The position numbers and the translations under genes were made by a program. From positions 96,001 to 160,000 of IMG/VR virus record IMGVR_UViG_3300029288_000066: DNA of 64,000 nucleotides; one strand, 5' to 3'. The stretch comes from a virus. Taxonomy: Duplodnaviria; Caudoviricetes. This document shows positions 1 through 59,521 of the stretch, in pieces. Under the pieces are notes generated by a model, which searched no databases, was not told the origin of the DNA, and worked only from the letters and a program-made list of their open reading frames with translations. Position 1 is the stretch's first letter, and the number at the start of each line of letters is the position of its first letter.

Positions 1-424
1 CACATAATTCTATCCAACTTCTTTTCATTTCATTGTTCTGGTCAAAAATCTTCATAGACTGAAAATTTGCACTTGAGAAATCCAAAGAAAGCATAAAATT
101 ACCTTCATACATTTTCAGGTGGTCTTTCGTATAGAACTTGGTCTGAGAATAATCAAATTCTTGGCACTTTTTATAAGCTTCTGACGTGGCTAAATAGTTT
201 TTGATGGTTTCATATACATAGCCCATTTTGTAATGTCCTACGTTGTTATATCCATTTTCTTTCAACCAATCTTCAAATTCAGAATAATTATTTACAGTCA
301 AAACAATATCCTTAAACTCAAAAGACTTTGAAAGTGTGTTGATATAGTATTCAAAATGTTCTTCAACAGGAATGTTGAGCTTAAAAAGCTTAGCGAATTC
401 TGCAATCTCTTTAATCTTTTTCAT
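1..424 (-). CDS. Hypothetical protein, truncated by window edge (MKKIKEIAEFAKLF...SLDFSSANF...)
   Basis: Manual translation from ATG at 424, open to position 1; overlaps stop of upstream gene. Confidence 0.8.
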   Translation of the reverse strand, partial: MKKIKEIAEFAKLFKLNIPVEEHFEYYINTLSKSFEFKDIVLTVNNYSEFEDWLKENGYNNVGHYKMGYVYETIKNYLATSEAYKKCQEFDYSQTKFYTKDHLKMYEGNFMLSLDFSSANFQSMKIFDQNNEMKRSWIELC

Positions 425-1592
425 AGAATTCTTTTCTTATTTTATTTGTTAAATTTTCAATAAATTTATGGTCGACTTTGTTTGGAAGATTTGATTTTTC
501 AAACAATTCATCCATTTTCGCAATTTTTTCTTCTGCGGTTTTAATCAAAGTGTCCAAATCAACTTTTCCGTGCCTGATATCAAGCAATTCTTTTGCATTT
601 GGTCTTCTTACAACAATTCCTTTGCCTTCGGCAATTTCGATAGACATATCAATTAGCCTCATACAATGAAGCATGTTTTTCCCATCAATTTTTTGTCCAT
701 GACTCTCAACATCAACCCATCTCTGCATATTTCTTGTTTTCAGCCAATTTTGATATTTGCTATAATCTTTGCAGTGCTGGGTATAAGCATCTTTGTTATA
801 AGAGAAAACGCAAACTGGTTTTTCTCCCTTCGGAATAGAACTTAATCTTAAATTGTTGGAAATCCCTGCGTTTTCTGAGCCGCCTTCTTTTTCGAGACCC
901 TTATATCCTAACCCAACGGTTTTGCTTTGTTCCTTAAGAACTTTTTTGTTGTGTTCTTTATCTACTTCTTCCATACACTTTGCAAAACAAAGATGTGCTT
1001 TCGAATCATAGAAAAGTGCGAACATATTCGTTGCGTTTGATACGTTTACGACGCCACAAAATTTTTGTTCATAATTATAATCCTTTAAAAACCCCTTCAA
1101 TTTTCTTGTTCCATATCCATCAATCACAAAGCAAAAGTCAATAGGGTTTTTTCTGGTTACCTTATTCTTTTCCCAGTTCATCATTTTATCCTGGCCTTTA
1201 GCTTTTTTTATTTGAGCTCTGGAATAGCCCCCAAAAGAATCAGCACATTTTTTTGTGATAAACTTATCCATTTCATTCAAAACCAAATCAAAAATTGGGT
1301 GTTTTGACACAACACAATCTTTGGGACTGTTCAAAAGCTCCAATAGTGTAGGATTTGCAGTTTCAATAAGCTGCATAAATTCGCTTAATTCAAATCCAAC
1401 AAAATCTTTATTAACGTGAACTTGTGGAATAAACCCGTACAAATAATCAGGAAGAATGTAAACAAATTTTTTGTCCACATCACTTTCTGGAGTATTCGTT
1501 CCATATGCTTGAGAACCGACAATTGTTTCAAAAACAATCCAATTGTTAGCTTTCAAAAATTCATAAAACTTTTCCGAACTTACATTTACCAT
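411..1592 (-). CDS. DNA pol-beta superfamily nucleotidyltransferase (RlaP/YcgL/T4 NrdC.11-like)
   Basis: GSQAYGTNTPESDVD motif, NPTLLELL, C-terminal KNMLHCMRL...LLDIRHG...SNLP. Confidence 0.85.
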   Translation of the reverse strand: MVNVSSEKFYEFLKANNWIVFETIVGSQAYGTNTPESDVDKKFVYILPDYLYGFIPQVHVNKDFVGFELSEFMQLIETANPTLLELLNSPKDCVVSKHPIFDLVLNEMDKFITKKCADSFGGYSRAQIKKAKGQDKMMNWEKNKVTRKNPIDFCFVIDGYGTRKLKGFLKDYNYEQKFCGVVNVSNATNMFALFYDSKAHLCFAKCMEEVDKEHNKKVLKEQSKTVGLGYKGLEKEGGSENAGISNNLRLSSIPKGEKPVCVFSYNKDAYTQHCKDYSKYQNWLKTRNMQRWVDVESHGQKIDGKNMLHCMRLIDMSIEIAEGKGIVVRRPNAKELLDIRHGKVDLDTLIKTAEEKIAKMDELFEKSNLPNKVDHKFIENLTNKIRKEFYEKD

Positions 1593-2662
1593 TATTTCCT
1601 TGGTTTAATATTTTCTGAATCTTTAATCTTTTCAAAAATCTCTTTTTCTTTATCAGATAAGTTTTGTGGAGTAAAAACACGGACATCAATATATAAATCT
1701 CCTCTATAATTTGTTCCCGCTTTATACATTCCTTTTCCCTCAACCCTTAATCTTGTTCCACTTTGAACTCCTGGTGTAATGACAACCTTTATTGTTCCCC
1801 CCTCGATTGTCTTAACTTCCAAATCTTTTCCAAATATTGCTTCACATATACTAAGGTGACACGTTGTATATAATTCAGAATCTTGACGTGTTACTGAATC
1901 ATTAAAAGCTTCTTCAACAATAACAAACAAGTTTCCGTTTGGTCCTCCATTCTTAGATACATTTCCAGCACCAATAAACTGTAATGTGTCACCGTTTTTC
2001 ACACTTCTTGGTATTTGCAAATCGACTTCTTCGTCTTTAAATGTTGTTTTTTTACCACCACAAGAACTACATGTTGCTTGAATTATTTTTCCGCTTCCAC
2101 CGCAATTTTGACAAGGTTCTTGCGACATAAAACTTCCGACCATGGTGTTTTTTACTCTTTTTATCCATCCAGAACCTTGACAGTCTGGACATGGATGAAC
2201 AGAAGAGTCGTTTGCTGCACCAGTACCTTTACAAACTTCACAAAGGACTTCCCTTTTATATTTTACCTTTTTTGTTATTCCAGAGAAAACATCTTCCAAA
2301 TCCAGAGTAATCTTCATTCTTAAATCTGTTCCTCTGTTATGTTGTTGATTTGCTTGTTGAAATGGGTTTCTTCCGCCAAAGAACTGTTCGAATATATCAT
2401 CTACATTAAAACCCCCGCCAAAACCCCCAAATCCACCTGGCATTCCCTGAAAATCTCCACCATCATATCTCTTTCTTTTTTCTTCGTCACCAATTACAGA
2501 ATAAGCCTCTGCAATTTCTTTAAACCTCTCCTCAGACTGTGCATTTCCTGGGTTTTTGTCAGGATGATGCTTTAACGCCAACTTACGATAAGCTTTTTTT
2601 ATCTCATCCAATGACGCCGCCTTGGGAACTCCCAAAATTTCATAATAGTCTTTTCTAGCCAT
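1592..2662 (-). CDS. dnaJ: DnaJ chaperone
   Basis: J-domain with HPD, G/F-rich linker, four CxxCxGxG-type zinc motifs, C-terminal domain. Confidence 0.97.
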
Positions 2663-22043: not shown

Positions 22044-22139
22044 TTAACGACATAACACAGCCAAGGTCTTTAGTGCTTGTTGCACAAAAAACACCACCTG
22101 AAAAAAGCGCTGACTTGATATGTTTGTTAAATTTTTCAT
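22044..22139 (-). CDS. Attenuator leader peptide MKNLTNISSQRFFQVVFFVQQALKTLAVLCR
   Basis: 12 consecutive Q/R/F/V codons; between promoter and terminator. Confidence 0.85.
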   Translation of the reverse strand: MKNLTNISSQRFFQVVFFVQQALKTLAVLCR

Positions 22140-28735: not shown

Positions 28736-30166
28736 TTAACGATTTCTTTTCATTTTTAATTCTCTTTGAGCCTCTCTTTCCTGAGTTTTCTTCTTTTCCA
28801 ATCTTCTTTCTTTAAAGGTAGGTCCAGAGTTTTTGTCCTTTATGTTTAATAAAGGCTTTAGTCTATCAATAATGGTAGCAGTCGGCTCAATAGCCGCTTC
28901 AATCATCTTTGAGCTTTTATACGAATTCGGAGCCTCATCTATAGTGCCACGCACAACCGAAGTAGAATATATTCCTTCCATTTGTTTTCTAAAAGTATCC
29001 ATGTCAAGAGTCTCTTTTGCTTTTGTTCTTGACATGCATCTTCCAGCCCCATGAGGTGAAGAAAAATTCCACTCAACATTTGATTTGCCTTCGCAAACCA
29101 ATATTCCATCTCTCATATTGAATGGGATAATCATTCTCTCTCCAACATAAGAACGGATAGCACCTTTACGAATAATAAAATCCCTAAAGTCAATAAAATT
29201 ATGGATACTTTCTATTTTATCAACTGGGATAATTCCTCCTAATATATTACAAACAATATTAAGCATCATTTCTCTGTTGAACTGTGCGTATTTTTGGGCG
29301 ACAAGCATATCAATAAGATATTCAAAAGCAGCGTTTCCTTCCAAAAATTCCATTCCTTTAACATCAAAATCGAAATCAAGGCCTAATTCTTTTTTTGCCT
29401 CAGAAATTAAAGAAGAAATCTTTGATTTATCTTCAGTGTTTTTTGTGATTTCTTCAATTTTGGCTCTTAAAATGTCGTTTCTGTTGTGGTCAAGTCCCTT
29501 CTTTGCCTTGTCCTGGTGATATTCACAAATCATTTTTCCAAAATTTCTTGACCCAGAGTGAATAGTTACCCAAACATCCCCACAACTATCTGATTTTGAG
29601 ACTTCTATAAAGTGATTGCCCCCACCGAGAGTTCCAATTGACAACTCAGCACGATTTGGCTTCATTCCAATCTTCTTACATAAAGCTCCAAAATCTTTAT
29701 AATCGTATTTACTGTAAGAATAGTTAGTTCCAAATTTTACATTATAAGCCCTAATAAAGGCCAGCATTTCATTATTAAGCACTTCCCAATGAAAGTATTT
29801 ATCAAATGAAAATTTATCATTAAAATTGAATTTAAATTCTTTTTCGTGAGTATTAATTCCCATAGGAACGTCTCTTCTTAATCTATCATCGAATTCTTTT
29901 AAAGTAATGGTTAATTTGCTACCAATGTTTGCTGATAGCATACCGCAGCCTATATCCACAGAGACGACATTAGGAATTATTTTAATTCCCATAGGCATTG
30001 TAAATCCAACACAACTTCCCTTCCCTGCGTGTCCGTCTGGCATTACAACAACTCTATTATCGAATGCAACATGACTAATCATCCTATAAACTTGATTAAT
30101 CATTTCCTGTTCAAACTCATCAATTGTTAAATATGCCGTTGTAAATTTCCCCTTAAGCTCTATCAT
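28736..30166 (-). CDS. rtcB: RtcB RNA ligase
   Basis: MPDGHAG, VDIGCG, GTLGGGNHFIE, HSGSR, HN, HGAGR. Confidence 0.95.
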   Translation of the reverse strand: MIELKGKFTTAYLTIDEFEQEMINQVYRMISHVAFDNRVVVMPDGHAGKGSCVGFTMPMGIKIIPNVVSVDIGCGMLSANIGSKLTITLKEFDDRLRRDVPMGINTHEKEFKFNFNDKFSFDKYFHWEVLNNEMLAFIRAYNVKFGTNYSYSKYDYKDFGALCKKIGMKPNRAELSIGTLGGGNHFIEVSKSDSCGDVWVTIHSGSRNFGKMICEYHQDKAKKGLDHNRNDILRAKIEEITKNTEDKSKISSLISEAKKELGLDFDFDVKGMEFLEGNAAFEYLIDMLVAQKYAQFNREMMLNIVCNILGGIIPVDKIESIHNFIDFRDFIIRKGAIRSYVGERMIIPFNMRDGILVCEGKSNVEWNFSSPHGAGRCMSRTKAKETLDMDTFRKQMEGIYSTSVVRGTIDEAPNSYKSSKMIEAAIEPTATIIDRLKPLLNIKDKNSGPTFKERRLEKKKTQEREAQRELKMKRNR

Positions 30167-41596: not shown

Positions 41597-41768
41597 AAAA
41601 AGAAACCCCCGCATCTCGTAAATACGGGGGAAACTTTCGTTTGTCGCAGGGGTTTAGCCCACTAGCTTCAAGCTTTCATCTAGGACGCACGGATTAAAAA
41701 AACACTGACCTTATCTGAAGGGTAAACGAGTTTTACCAGGAGTTTCCTAATCACAAAACAGAATCTTC
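41597..41768 (-). ncRNA. Putative sRNA (about 170 nt)
   Basis: AAC-N16-CGTATAA promoter at 41773-41798, terminator CCCCCGTAT/ATGCGGGGG, GC-richer, no ORF. Confidence 0.55.
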
Positions 41769-41941
41769 AAACTTATACGCAAACTTTTAAAAAAAGTTTC
41801 AATTTTATTTATTTATTAACGCAATTAGTTTTTTCGTTGCGTCATATGTACGAAAATAAAACCACCAATATTTATGATGGCCTTCAAAGATTTTCATTTT
41901 GTGATAATATATATCAATTTTCATAATTCAAAATTTATTTG

Positions 41942-42025
41942 TAGCTAAGAAAGGACTCGAACCTTCAAATTCTTACGAATCACGGTTTCTGAAACCGCTG
42001 CGTCAACCATTTGCGCCACTTAGCC
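41942..42025 (-). tRNA. tRNA-Leu(CAG)
   Basis: GCGGT-TTCAGAA-ACCGT, long variable arm. Confidence 0.9.
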
Positions 42026-42224
42026 ATTTATTATTCTATTCACAAAGTCAAAAAGTTCCATTCCTCTTATGAATTTATCTTTTGCTTCTTTATATGTCGG
42101 CGCATTAGTCACTGCTCCCCCACTCCATTGTACGATATTCCAACACCATCTTCATCTTGAACAATTAATACATCCCATTTTTCTATTTTCTCAACTCTAA
42201 TTTTCATAATTCAAAAATTATTTG

Positions 42225-42309
42225 TGACATCGGAGGAAGTCGAATCCTCATGAGTATTAACTCGATAGCCCCTCAAGCTATTGCGTATAACCAATTTCGC
42301 CACGATGCC
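42225..42309 (-). tRNA. tRNA-Leu(GAG)
   Basis: ATAGC-TTGAGGG-GCTAT, long variable arm. Confidence 0.9.
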
Positions 42310-42315
42310 ATTTTG

Positions 42316-42397
42316 TACCCCAAGAAAGACTCGAACTTTCACACCTTTCAGTACCAGGTTTTGAATCTGGGTCGGCTACCATTTTCGACATTGGGGC
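42316..42397 (-). tRNA. tRNA-Leu(CAA)
   Basis: CCAGA-TTCAAAA-CCTGG, long variable arm. Confidence 0.88.
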
Positions 42398-43267
42398 TTA
42401 TTTAAAAATTTTTTTTAATCTTATTAATTCTTTTATAACTTCTTCAGATTCTTTAGTTTTATGTTTGTTTTCAAATAATTCTATTTTTTTTAATAATTTT
42501 TTCAAACTTATTTGCGACTTTACACCCTTAGATTGATTTTTTATGTGTGGCACTAATCTACAATTCGCTGGATGTCTTATTATTATAGGATTTATTCCAA
42601 TTAAAAACCCATCTTTGACTGAAAAAACATGGTCTCTACTAACTCCTTTTAAATTATTCTTCTTATTTGTTGGACTATACCATCCGATTTCTTTAATAAG
42701 TTTTATATTAAATTCTTCTGGAAACATATTTAATGAAAATTTAAATTCACATTCTGCTCTGTAAAATTTATAATATTTTACCTTACATGATTCGCAAATT
42801 GTCTTAAACCCAAAAACTTCACCTCCTTTGCAAATTTTACAATATCTCATTTTTTTCTCCACGGGTTTCTTTTTATTTATTGCTTTTTTTATTTTTCTAC
42901 AATCCTCGCAAATTGCATTATTTAGAGAAGCTCTTTTGTTTATCAGAAGTTCTTTTTCACACTTCTTACAATAGGCCTTTTTTGTTTCTGAATAATTTAT
43001 TTTTCTCAGCTTATTGTTAAATGATGCTGAACAGGATTTAGAACAAAATATTTTATTTTCACTTTTCAAACTTTCAAAAATACTACCACAATTTTTACAA
43101 TTATTATGAACTTTACTTTCTTTTATTAAAGAAATTTTTAATCTGTGGAATTTTAACTGTACCGATTTTTTAGTTCTACCAATAGTTTTAGCTATTTCAT
43201 TACATGAAATATTGGATTTTGCCAACTCAACAATTTTATCTATTTCTTTTGTATCCCATTTTTTCAT
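42398..43267 (-). CDS. HNH homing endonuclease with HTH and zinc fingers
   Basis: SRDHVFS...HPANC...N.SK; CxxC motifs. Confidence 0.8.
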   Translation of the reverse strand: MKKWDTKEIDKIVELAKSNISCNEIAKTIGRTKKSVQLKFHRLKISLIKESKVHNNCKNCGSIFESLKSENKIFCSKSCSASFNNKLRKINYSETKKAYCKKCEKELLINKRASLNNAICEDCRKIKKAINKKKPVEKKMRYCKICKGGEVFGFKTICESCKVKYYKFYRAECEFKFSLNMFPEEFNIKLIKEIGWYSPTNKKNNLKGVSRDHVFSVKDGFLIGINPIIIRHPANCRLVPHIKNQSKGVKSQISLKKLLKKIELFENKHKTKESEEVIKELIRLKKIFK

Positions 43268-43342
43268 ACTATTTTTATTTATAAATAGTATAAAAAAAGA
43301 GTATTACAACCTTTTCGAACCTAAATTTCAAAGAACTTTTTG

Positions 43343-43416
43343 TACTCTACCTCGGACTCGAACCGAGAAAATCATGAGCCTAAATCATGTGGATATACCA
43401 ATTCTCCTAGTAGAGT
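43343..43416 (-). tRNA. tRNA-Leu(TAG), short variable loop
   Basis: CATGA-TTTAGGC-TCATG. Confidence 0.85.
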
Positions 43417-43421
43417 GTTTG

Positions 43422-43492
43422 AGGTCAGCAACGGAATCGAACCGTTCTATATGGGTTTGCAATCCACAACTTAACCAATCAGACAGCTGACC
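43422..43492 (-). tRNA. tRNA-Cys(GCA)
   Basis: Loop TTGCAAA, U73 discriminator. Confidence 0.85.
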
Positions 43493-43501
43493 TTATTTTT
43501 G

Positions 43502-43590
43502 TACCCCAGGAGAGACTTGAACTCTCACGCTACTATTATTTCGCCTCGGATTTTAAGTCCGATATGTACTACCAATTTCATCACTGGGGC
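43502..43590 (-). tRNA. tRNA-Leu(TAA)
   Basis: TCGGA-CTTAAAA-TCCGA. Confidence 0.9.
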
Positions 43591-43596
43591 ATAAAT

Positions 43597-43737
43597 AATC
43601 AAGGGAAAATTTGAAAAAGTGTAACCCTTTCGGGATGGCGGGATTTGAACCCGCAATGACCTTTCGGTCACCAGATTTTTAGTCTAGTGTCTGTACCAGT
43701 TCGACAACGAAGTAACTTTTTCGATTGCCACTTGATT
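43597..43737 (-). ncRNA. Scaffold (Y-RNA-like) ncRNA 1 carrying Leu-type tRNA body
   Basis: GTGGCAATCGAAAAAGTTACTTCG...CACTTTTTCAAATTTTCCC enclosing D, anticodon (loop CTAAAAA), variable and T arms. Confidence 0.7.
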
Positions 43738-43765
43738 TTATTTTCAATATTTTAAAGAACGATGT

Positions 43766-43806
43766 AAAAAGAAAAAGGGAGCTAGTTTTTCAACTGCTCC
43801 CTTTTT
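43766..43806 (-). terminator. Attenuator terminator, Leu/Cys operon
   Basis: GGGAGCAGTT-GAAA-AACTAGCTCCC + TTTTTCTTTTT; 5' arm complementary to AATTGCTCCC in leader. Confidence 0.88.
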
Positions 43807-43826
43807 AAGTTTGGTTTATCTCGCAT

Positions 43827-43907
43827 TTACGCAAAATCATACCACGTCAACTTGCTTTGGGAGCAATTGGCTAGTAAGAGGCATAAACACAAAGATATAG
43901 TTTTCAT
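43827..43907 (-). CDS. Attenuator leader peptide MKTISLCLCLLLANCSQSKLTWYDFA
   Basis: TTG TGT TTA TGC CTC TTA CTA run. Confidence 0.85.
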   Translation of the reverse strand: MKTISLCLCLLLANCSQSKLTWYDFA

Positions 43908-43920
43908 AATATATTTCTTT

Positions 43921-43985
43921 CTATTAAATAGTTCAATTTTTTACTTTCTACGCAAAGATACAAAAAAAGTTACATTAAATGCAAG
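43921..43985 (-). promoter_or_regulatory. tRNA-operon tandem promoter repeat, copy 2
   Basis: Near-identical to 22151-22216. Confidence 0.8.
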
Positions 43986-56534: not shown

Positions 56535-56618
56535 TTATGCAAAAATCTCCCAGCCACTAAGTTTTTTAATCTTAATGCTAATAGATTTCTTTATAATTAC
56601 AGTTAACAACATATTCAT
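56535..56618 (-). CDS. Attenuator leader peptide MNMLLTVIIKKSISIKIKKLSGWEIFA
   Basis: ATT ATA AAG AAA TCT ATT AGC ATT AAG ATT AAA AAA. Confidence 0.85.
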   Translation of the reverse strand: MNMLLTVIIKKSISIKIKKLSGWEIFA

Positions 56619-57850: not shown

Positions 57851-57983
57851 AAAAAAGGGGAAAAGTTAGAACAGGGTTTTTCATGTAAAATCCTGGAGTT
57901 TAACCAGTACCCATTGAATTAAAAGTCAATTGCTCAACACTGAGCTAATTTTACGAAGTAGCTGTTCAGATTGCCACCTTTTT
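57851..57983 (-). ncRNA. Scaffold (Y-RNA-like) ncRNA 2 carrying Lys(TTT)-like tRNA body
   Basis: GTGGCAATCTGAACAGCTACTTCG...CTGTTCTAACTTTTCCCC enclosing TAGCTCAG..GAGC, ATTGA-CTTTTAAT-TCAAT. Confidence 0.7.
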
Positions 57984-58189: not shown

Positions 58190-59035
58190 TTATTTTTTAT
58201 AATCTTTTAGCCATTTTCTAATTGCATTGTCAGAAACACCATATTTTTTGCCAACCGCACAATAATTTGTTTTTTTAATTTCTTGCATCAACTGTTCATA
58301 AGACGGCCTTTCAACCCTTCTTCTACTTTTTTTATAACAATCTATACATTCTTTTGCTTTTACATCCTTCTCTTTCCCACATTTGCAAACTCTTGTTTTT
58401 TCACTTTTCCTTTTAATGTTTCTAAAACAATATGTGTTTAACGTAGAATCACAATTTGGACATATGATTCTTAGATTTTTTAATCTATTATCCATATGAT
58501 TTCCATTAATATGGTCAAGAATTAAAATTAATTTATTTCCATTCCAATTTACATCCTGTCCACACAACTCACAACATTCTTTTTTTAAACCTTCATCATA
58601 CAATCTTTTTTTAAAATTAGAAGGTAAGCTTTTTCCAACTACAAAATAATATTCAATTGGGTTCTTTTTGCAACCAGTAATTACACCTTGTTCTTTTAAT
58701 CGCTTATACAGCTCTTTTTTTCCAGTAAAATGTGAAATGTCTACATTATATCGAGCAATATAGTTTTTTATTGTTGTAAAACTTGCAGATGCTGGATTAA
58801 TATTAAGATTTCTTAAAGCATCAGAATAAGAATATGCATTTTTAACAGCTTCTAGTATTTCTTTTTCTGAATATTTCCAAATTCCATACTTTGCAACTTT
58901 TAAACCAAGACGCTTTGCTTTATGAGCTACGGAATGTTTACTCTTGCCTAACTTTCGAGAACAATATATAGCACCATGCTCTTCATAATTGTTCTTAAGA
59001 AATAAAATTTCATTTTCTACCCATTTATATTTCAT
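58190..59035 (-). CDS. HNH homing endonuclease
   Basis: CELC...LDHINGNHMDNRLKNLRIICPNC; C-terminal HTH. Confidence 0.9.
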   Translation of the reverse strand: MKYKWVENEILFLKNNYEEHGAIYCSRKLGKSKHSVAHKAKRLGLKVAKYGIWKYSEKEILEAVKNAYSYSDALRNLNINPASASFTTIKNYIARYNVDISHFTGKKELYKRLKEQGVITGCKKNPIEYYFVVGKSLPSNFKKRLYDEGLKKECCELCGQDVNWNGNKLILILDHINGNHMDNRLKNLRIICPNCDSTLNTYCFRNIKRKSEKTRVCKCGKEKDVKAKECIDCYKKSRRRVERPSYEQLMQEIKKTNYCAVGKKYGVSDNAIRKWLKDYKK

Positions 59036-59101
59036 ATTGACATCTTTATTATAAATATGCCAAAAAATTATTTTTTCAATATTTCAAAGAACTTAATTTT
59101 G

Positions 59102-59191: not shown

Positions 59192-59349
59192 AATTCGGGG
59201 AAAAGGAGCAAAAGTGTTTTTTCTATACTCTAACCAACTGAGCTACGTGCTCCATTTTTTTTATTATTTGGGAGCACGACTGGACTCGAACCAGCGACCT
59301 TTTGTTATCAAGACAAATGCGAAGTAACTTTTACAATTGCCACCGAATT
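59192..59349 (-). ncRNA. Scaffold (YrlA-like) ncRNA 3 carrying circularly permuted tRNA
   Basis: Order: anticodon-like arm, T arm, acceptor 3' strand, linker, acceptor 5' strand, D arm, inside GTGGCAAT..TTACTTCG/CACTTTT..TTTTCCCC. Confidence 0.75.
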
Positions 59350-59375
59350 ATTTCAAAATTTTAAAGAACGATATA

Positions 59376-59431: not shown

Positions 59432-59521
59432 TTATTTTAAGATAGACATATTACACCCAGACACACATGTATTATTATGTTTGTTGGTCTTCGTGTTAAT
59501 ATGTATACTTAAAGCTAACAT
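59432..59521 (-). CDS. Attenuator leader peptide MLALSIHINTKTNKHNNTCVSGCNMSILK
   Basis: CAT ATT AAC ACG AAG ACC AAC AAA CAT AAT AAT ACA. Confidence 0.83.
   Translation of the reverse strand: MLALSIHINTKTNKHNNTCVSGCNMSILK

Follow-up and report, generated by a model that had tools for sequence, protein, structure and literature searches.

Leader-peptide attenuation is textbook regulation of amino-acid synthesis genes. In multivalent attenuators one leader samples several amino acids, namely Ile, Leu and Val in the ilvGMEDA leader and Thr and Ile in the thr leader. T-boxes bind uncharged tRNA directly, without translation, and use one specifier codon and a conserved T-box motif. We analysed a 64,000-nucleotide stretch (the window) of a phage genome of the class Caudoviricetes, positions 96001-160000 of IMG/VR record IMGVR_UViG_3300029288_000066 (228,886 bp, 33% GC), and focused on the Leu/Cys unit, a leader open reading frame (ORF) with a terminator that precedes a tRNA operon on the minus strand. 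Coordinates are those of the window unless marked as genome positions. The results suggest, at a probability that we put at about 0.72, that the Leu/Cys unit is a ribosome-mediated (leader-peptide) transcription attenuator controlling this operon. A first-pass annotation of the sequence had already read the unit as an attenuator, and this reading is strongly supported by the architecture of the unit, by five paralogous units, by six orthologs and by folding as a function of ribosome position.

The closest described systems are the leader-peptide attenuators of amino-acid operons, leuL of E. coli and Salmonella, trpL, hisL, thrL and pheL (PMC3082878, PMC1183508). The Leu/Cys unit resembles the leuL type in its short, presumably translated ORF, its regulatory codon run, its intrinsic terminator and its protector, antiterminator and terminator helices, which are predicted to be mutually exclusive; as in leuL, a ribosome stalled on the run would free the antiterminator. 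Unlike leuL-type leaders, it is phage-borne, has a Bacteroidota-type promoter, would initiate without a Shine-Dalgarno (SD) sequence and has its stop codon 30 nt beyond the antiterminator segment. It has no sequence or Rfam relationship to them: none of the Rfam families Leu_leader, Phe_leader, His_leader, Thr_leader and Trp_leader matched at the gathering score, the best being Phe_leader at 16.5 bits against 55 (E=3.7). The leuL-type operons control biosynthetic enzymes whereas the phage unit would control tRNAs, and the likely feedback variable is therefore tRNA supply.

Like the ilv and thr leaders, the phage leaders combine several amino acids, Leu and Cys in this unit and up to six in its sister units. 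The ilv and thr mixtures reflect a shared biosynthetic pathway, whereas the phage mixture mirrors an arbitrary set of downstream tRNAs. The pheST attenuator of E. coli and the His leader before hisS paralogs in bacilli (PMC2965389) also apply leader-peptide attenuation to the decoding machinery rather than to amino-acid synthesis, but they control single-amino-acid synthetase genes and none controls tRNA genes. The phage operon shares with phage tRNA clusters and with the stress-induced tRNA gene arrays of cyanobacteria, described in a text without attenuators, leaders or terminators (PMC8421152), the character of an accessory tRNA array, which here too would be expressed under translation stress. 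As in T-boxes, tRNA status would be read out through a choice between terminator and antiterminator, but the phage unit has no T-box match (RF00230; neither at the gathering score nor at E up to 5). Full-text literature searches retrieved no description of tRNA genes under leader-peptide control, whether cellular or viral, nor of permuted phage tRNAs. The Leu/Cys unit would thus be a case of a classical mechanism in which both the class of genes controlled and the logic are new, with tRNA supply feeding back on tRNA transcription.

Anatomy of the Leu/Cys unit

In the order of transcription, the unit and its operon consist of the following parts.

43953-43984, minus strand: promoter module, with the -33 TTG at 43984-43982, a 21-nt spacer and the -7 box TATCTTTG at 43960-43953
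43908-43946, minus strand: 5' untranslated region (UTR), AU-rich, without a Shine-Dalgarno sequence, with A at -3 and the conserved motif ACTATTTAA
43827-43907, minus strand: leader ORF, 26 codons and TAA
43872-43892, minus strand: putative sensor run LCLCLLL, codons 6-12 (TTG TGT TTA TGC CTC TTA CTA)
43859-43869, minus strand: antiterminator segment CAAUUGCUCCC, codons 13-17, complementary to the terminator 5' arm
43817-43897, minus strand: P1 hairpin, -23.0 kcal/mol, predicted anti-antiterminator and possible pause hairpin
43766-43806, minus strand: intrinsic terminator, with A-tract 43806-43802, stem-loop 43801-43777 and U-tract 43776-43766
43597-43731, minus strand: scaffolded tRNA-like RNA (Rfam tRNA model positions 7-64, 30.5 bits)
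43501-43590, minus strand: tRNA-Leu(UAA) (ARAGORN, Rfam)
43421-43492, minus strand: tRNA-Cys(GCA) (ARAGORN, Rfam)
43342-43416, minus strand: tRNA-Leu(UAG) (ARAGORN, Rfam)
42315-42397, minus strand: tRNA-Leu(CAA) (ARAGORN)
42224-42309, minus strand: tRNA-Leu(GAG) (ARAGORN)
41941-42025, minus strand: tRNA-Leu(CAG), the last gene of the array (ARAGORN); its Watson-Crick codon CTG is not in the leader

The run of four different Leu codons and both Cys codons that the first-pass annotation had singled out is present at 43892-43872(-). Among the seven-residue windows of phage ORFs of at least 150 aa, 0 of 49,209 consisted of Leu and Cys only. The annotated tRNA set was also confirmed, since ARAGORN called exactly six genes in 41941-43590(-), Leu TAA, TAG, CAA, GAG and CAG and Cys GCA, and no others. 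Rfam detected only one further item in the array, an acceptor-less tRNA-like element at 43637-43708. The proposed pairing of AATTGCTCCC (43868-43859) with GGGAGCAGTT (43801-43792) proved real and non-random, and it extends to 11 bp between CAAUUGCUCCC (43869-43859) and GGGAGCAGUUG, the terminator 5' arm. The energy of the CAAUUGCUCCC:GGGAGCAGUUG duplex is -20.7 kcal/mol; none of 5000 ORFs shuffled with dinucleotides preserved attained this value, and of 5000 81-mers drawn at random from the genome only 2 did.

The -7 box TATCTTTG fits TAnnTTTG and is of the Bacteroidota type as read from the sequence. In the genome, near-identical copies of the promoter precede three tRNA operons, and the copies before two others have diverged; the promoter is kept in 15 related metagenomic loci. 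TAnnTTTG is present in the promoters upstream of the tRNA clusters; an SD-like core precedes only 10% of the long ORFs of the phage, and 58% have A at -3. Such promoters and SD-less starts are established as typical of Bacteroidota, which describes the type of signal and not the identity of the host. The leader AUG lies ~40 nt downstream of the predicted transcription start. In the P1 hairpin the run pairs with the stop-codon region and the antiterminator segment sits at the apex; the leader region has a folding z of -4.2. The terminator has a 10-bp GC-rich stem and an energy of ~-19 kcal/mol.

Sister units and orthologs

The genome holds six leader-plus-terminator units, since the promoter/UTR module recurs at four more tRNA operons and one further unit is internal. 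The five other leader units, all of which precede other tRNA operons, are as follows.

window 22044-22139, minus strand: leader unit
window 59432-59521, minus strand: leader unit
window 56535-56618, minus strand: leader unit
genome 177662-177733, minus strand: leader unit
genome 194072-194158, minus strand: leader unit

The six leader runs comprise Gln/Arg/Phe/Val; Leu/Cys; Asn/His/Thr (plus Lys/Ile); Lys/Ile; Asp/Gly/Ala/Tyr/Met/Pro; and Ser/Arg/Trp codons. The terminators are canonical throughout the six units, and in five units the terminator starts 24-26 nt past the stop codon. We scored the leader codons decodable by the anticodons of an operon over all 720 leader/operon permutations. The true assignment gave 71 cognate codons and was the unique best of the 720 (mean 26, next best 60). 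In each of the six leaders, the segment directly 3' of the run shows complementarity to the terminator 5' arm of the same unit. Summed over the leaders and their own terminator arms, the duplex energy was -84.1 kcal/mol, again the unique best of 720 permutations (mean -56.0); the Leu/Cys leader reached -20.7 kcal/mol with its own arm compared to -5.0 to -8.7 kcal/mol with the other five.

The first-pass annotation had further taken the diversity of Leu codons as a sign that individual isoacceptors are sensed. This part did not stand. At least four distinct codons among six Leu codons are expected with a probability of 0.46 under phage codon usage, the anticodon species covered by all six leaders number 37 of 42 compared to 34.4 expected (P=0.13), and CTG is absent from the leader though the operon has tRNA-Leu(CAG); the codon diversity is therefore no evidence for isoacceptor sensing. 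The joint presence of CTC and CTA has a probability of 0.07 under the same codon usage. Any stalling sensor acts at the codon level, and real anticodon-level matching was seen only in the sister units, not in the Leu codons. Leader A (Gln/Phe/Arg) and its three orthologs use only the Arg codons CGC and CGT, which together make up only ~12% of Arg codons in the phage, and are paired with tRNA-Arg(ACG). The Ser/Arg/Trp leaders, leader E among them, use only AGA and AGG, with tRNA-Arg(UCU/CCU).

To collect orthologs, metagenomes were scanned with the promoter core and IMG/VR with the sensor run, and a genome collection was scanned as well. The orthologs came from metagenome contigs, two IMG/VR contigs and one contig, probably mis-binned, of a metagenome-assembled genome (MAG), and the scans also yielded orthologs of four other units. 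The first promoter pattern used in IMG/VR gave only chance matches within coding DNA. Among GenBank phages, searches at the DNA and protein levels with the region and the genes on its flanks turned up no relative, only tRNA/HNH pieces and distant matches of 27-31% identity, and IMG/VR searched with the flanking proteins gave no relatives either. L057 and L058, on contigs filed under a Candidatus Pacearchaeota MAG, bear the promoter, leaders and tRNA arrays of the phage group and are probably mis-binned phage DNA.

Seven Leu/Cys leaders, that of the window and six orthologs (L047, L049, L020, L055, L056 and L058), were compared. All seven have the same AUG start and 26-27 codons. The run LCLCLLL is kept in each of them and varies only between TGC and TGT; a terminator of -18 to -26 kcal/mol follows in every case, and the Leu(UAA), Cys and Leu(UAG) tRNAs come next in 7/7 units. 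Variable columns were fewer in the run (1/21) than in the rest of the ORF (17/41; 7 sequences; Fisher P=0.003). CTC TTA CTA is invariant while most of its P1 partners vary, which hints at a constraint on the codons themselves. In L056 a 1-nt deletion after the run frameshifts the C-terminus and shifts the stop 4 nt downstream; ORF length is therefore kept and the C-terminal peptide is not, which argues against a functional small protein. The antiterminator helix had 95.7% of cells paired in the seven sequences compared to 33-55% in slid controls, with one compensatory change (A-U to G-C) and three one-sided changes. The lower P1 helix was 91.8% paired, with one-sided changes only. An RNAalifold run on the alignment paired the promoter, which is untranscribed, with the leader; this was discarded as an artefact of including the promoter in the input.

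Ribosome position, proposed mechanism and rival readings

From the anatomy, statistics, paralogs and conservation described above, we infer leader translation, stalling, a kinetic order of folding and a biological purpose as follows. Transcription would start at the Bacteroidota-type promoter, and the 26-codon leader would be translated while it emerges. A shortage of charged tRNA-Leu or tRNA-Cys would make the ribosome stall with its A site in codons 6-11, covering the P1 5' arm and leaving CAAUUGCUCCC free to pair with GGGAGCAGUUG. The terminator would thereby be blocked, and RNA polymerase would read through into the tRNA-like element, probably of the Y-RNA type, and on into tRNA-Cys and the five tRNA-Leu genes. 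Under fast decoding, the ribosome would pass codons 12-22 and hide the antiterminator segment during terminator synthesis, or it would be released and P1 would re-form (or P1 would form first). By both fast-decoding routes, transcription would end at 43776-43766. The outcome would be a negative feedback that matches Leu/Cys tRNA supply to decoding demand, for example upon depletion of host tRNAs.

We folded the full-length leader at equilibrium with ribosome masks. The terminator won in four of the six units, the Leu/Cys unit included, as in classical attenuators. Because the terminator dominates, full-length equilibrium folding is uninformative, and we therefore used a transcript cut just before the terminator 3' arm, with 31 nt masked around each A-site position. 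In the Leu/Cys unit, sequestration of the terminator 5' arm was worth ~-14 kcal/mol while the A site was at any of codons 3-9. The value weakened to -12.3, -11.1 and -4.9 kcal/mol at codons 10, 11 and 12, respectively, and remained at ~-2 kcal/mol at codons 13-21. The drop falls at the end of the cognate run in 6/6 units. In units C2 and E no antiterminator forms without a ribosome, which is textbook behaviour and needs no kinetic assumption.

Several results weigh against attenuation in the Leu/Cys unit. Equilibrium folding of the full-length RNA favours the terminator whatever the ribosome state. On the cut transcript the antiterminator is predicted both in the absence of a ribosome (-11.3 kcal/mol) and when one occupies the stop codon (-14.0 kcal/mol), and the off-state would therefore depend on the kinetic order in which the helices form. 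Because the ORF extends nine codons beyond the antiterminator segment, with the stop codon 30 nt past that segment, the antiterminator becomes available once more when the ribosome is at codons 24-27. Part of the antiterminator segment is hidden as soon as the ribosome stalls at codon 12. Covariation is weak, since the variation among the seven sequences is too small; the helices vary little and shuffle controls were not exceeded (207/500 and 277/500). Stalling caused by amino-acid starvation would induce the tRNAs without benefit. In a search of public sequencing runs no RNA run matched, and the only full match was a landfill metagenome, from which the phage DNA may derive.

The dominance of the strong hairpin on full-length RNA, in every ribosome state, would also be expected of a fixed, unregulated partial terminator, which would set a constant low transcription of the tRNAs or provide insulation and would be preceded by a short ORF without a sensing role. 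This reading leaves unexplained the match of six leaders to their own tRNAs (1/720), the complementarity of each leader to its own terminator arm (1/720) and the finding that no other part of the ORF is as conserved as the run, and we consider it improbable. Just as improbable is a general translation-stress sensor of the erm type, in which any ribosome slowdown would open the terminator and the Leu/Cys content would be secondary. Such a sensor would account for the antiterminator being available also when codons 2-5, none of which specifies Leu or Cys, occupy the A site. It has no need of a codon content that tracks the tRNAs of each operon down to the Arg codon boxes.

A little less probable again is an RNA-only tRNA sensor, in which the anticodons of uncharged tRNAs would pair with the codon run in a T-box-like manner, without translation. 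The run is invariant at the nucleotide level, most synonymous sites included, as this reading would predict. Against it, Rfam gave no T-box or other riboswitch match, seven consecutive specifier-like codons are without precedent, the AUG, frame and ORF length are conserved, and the switch point in folding tracks the position of the ribosome. The N-terminal Lys, the hydrophobic Leu-rich core followed by Cys and the canonical lipoboxes LASC and LSSC of two orthologs, which likewise speak against attenuation, recall a separate gene for a small lipoprotein or secreted peptide, with a terminator of its own and a coincidental tRNA adjacency, but this is very improbable given that Asn occupies -1 in 4/7 leaders (L-A-N-C in the window, S-N-C in three orthologs), that the window leader shows no lipobox [LVI][ASTVI][GAS]C with a conserved mature part, the 'mature' part being variable and, in L056, frameshifted, that the peptide has no family match, and that the five sister leaders, with the same promoter, UTR and terminator geometry, are not signal peptides.

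If the Leu/Cys unit is an attenuator, decoding speed itself can feedback-control tRNA supply, and large phages would meter their tRNA sets operon by operon, which would be one reason for the grouping of tRNAs by amino acid. A phage could then sense the loss of host tRNAs, which bears on tRNA-targeting anti-phage defences. Ribosome-mediated attenuation would also extend to hosts with Bacteroidota-type, SD-less initiation, and the six homologous, differently coded switches in one genome would offer a natural experiment for the design rules of attenuators.

Scaffolded RNAs and neighbouring features

What comes first after the terminator is the element at 43597-43731 and not a tRNA. Its body is of the Leu type, with D, anticodon, long variable and T arms but without an acceptor stem; it has the anticodon loop CUAAAAA and is closed by a conserved terminal stem. 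This scaffold stem covaries in the orthologs (GAAAAAGU/ACUUUUUC versus AAAAGAGU/ACUCUUUU). The terminal scaffold occurs at seven places of the genome, all on the minus strand: window 43597-43731, 57851-57965 and 59192-59370, and genome 173308, 175258, 175962 and 215486. The shared ends, GGUGGCAAU..AAAAGUUACUUCG on the 5' side and ACACUUUU..UUUUCCC on the 3' side, surround varied tRNA-like bodies that are Leu-like without an acceptor stem, Lys-like, or 'permuted' in their order, a loop then closing the acceptor stem; in the relative L030 the scaffold lies within a tRNA of normal order. A TROVE/Ro60 ORF (genome 214082-214933, E=2e-21) adjoins one scaffolded element, and no ribozyme or Y-RNA family of Rfam was matched. 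Circularly permuted or intron-bearing tRNA genes were the first reading of these elements, and the rejoined halves in operon C do give a cloverleaf. The reading as YrlA-like tRNA mimics is now preferred because the TROVE/Ro60 gene was found, and the scaffolded elements, that at 43597-43731 included, are on their sequence features probably YrlA-like Y RNAs.

Further phage genes, at window 411-2662(-) and 28736-30166(-), code for an RlaP-family nucleotidyltransferase, a full DnaJ and, at the second of these positions, RtcB. The Y-RNA-like element, RtcB, the RlaP-family nucleotidyltransferase and TROVE/Ro60 together fit an RNA-repair theme. We regard as tentative, and on balance doubtful, a wider reading in which the units form a codon-resolved tRNA-supply homeostat. 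Each operon would open only on stalling for its own tRNAs, and the whole would serve as a sensor of, and countermeasure to, host tRNA depletion or cleavage by anticodon-nuclease defences. It would be wired with the Ro60/Y-RNA-like/RtcB RNA-repair set of the phage, one member of which would be the first product released by the attenuator.

Three further features of the operon lie between and behind the parts described above.

43745-43760, minus strand: conserved motif GTTCTTTAAAATATTG, found downstream of every attenuator terminator and of several tRNAs
42398-43267, minus strand: 289-aa ORF inside the tRNA array (phrog_23051, E=4.6e-30; HNH phrogs, E=3e-4)
41606-41884, minus strand: terminator-like hairpins, the probable end of the operon (41884-41858, plus a strong one at 41630-41606)

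The motif GTTCTTTAAAATATTG occurs at 23 further minus-strand sites of the genome. Reading the sequence by eye, we found no TAnnTTTG box between the terminator and the first tRNA, which speaks for the attenuator reading; since the motif lacks such a box, it may be a processing signal. The 289-aa ORF has no Pfam match and belongs to a phage family of unknown function; because of its weak similarity to HNH endonucleases, it is probably a mobile endonuclease. A second endonuclease-like ORF of the HNH type lies between tRNA genes of an attenuated operon at window 58190-59040(-).

The leader UAA overlaps an AUG (UAAAUG) that opens a 14-codon frame, 43829-43785(-), entering the terminator 5' arm. Reinitiation there could affect the terminator; the frame is not kept in L020 or L058. 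In the ortholog L026, which has a Gln/Phe/Arg/Val leader, an in-frame TAG lies ~170 nt past the promoter where L030 has CAA (Gln), and the frame runs on past the TAG to the usual stop. The genome of the window encodes a tRNA with anticodon CUA (196604-196678), and phages of this group may decode TAG as an amino acid, perhaps Gln. On the whole phage genome ARAGORN called 53 tRNA genes, all on the minus strand and grouped by amino acid, and a permuted tmRNA at genome 84078-84424.

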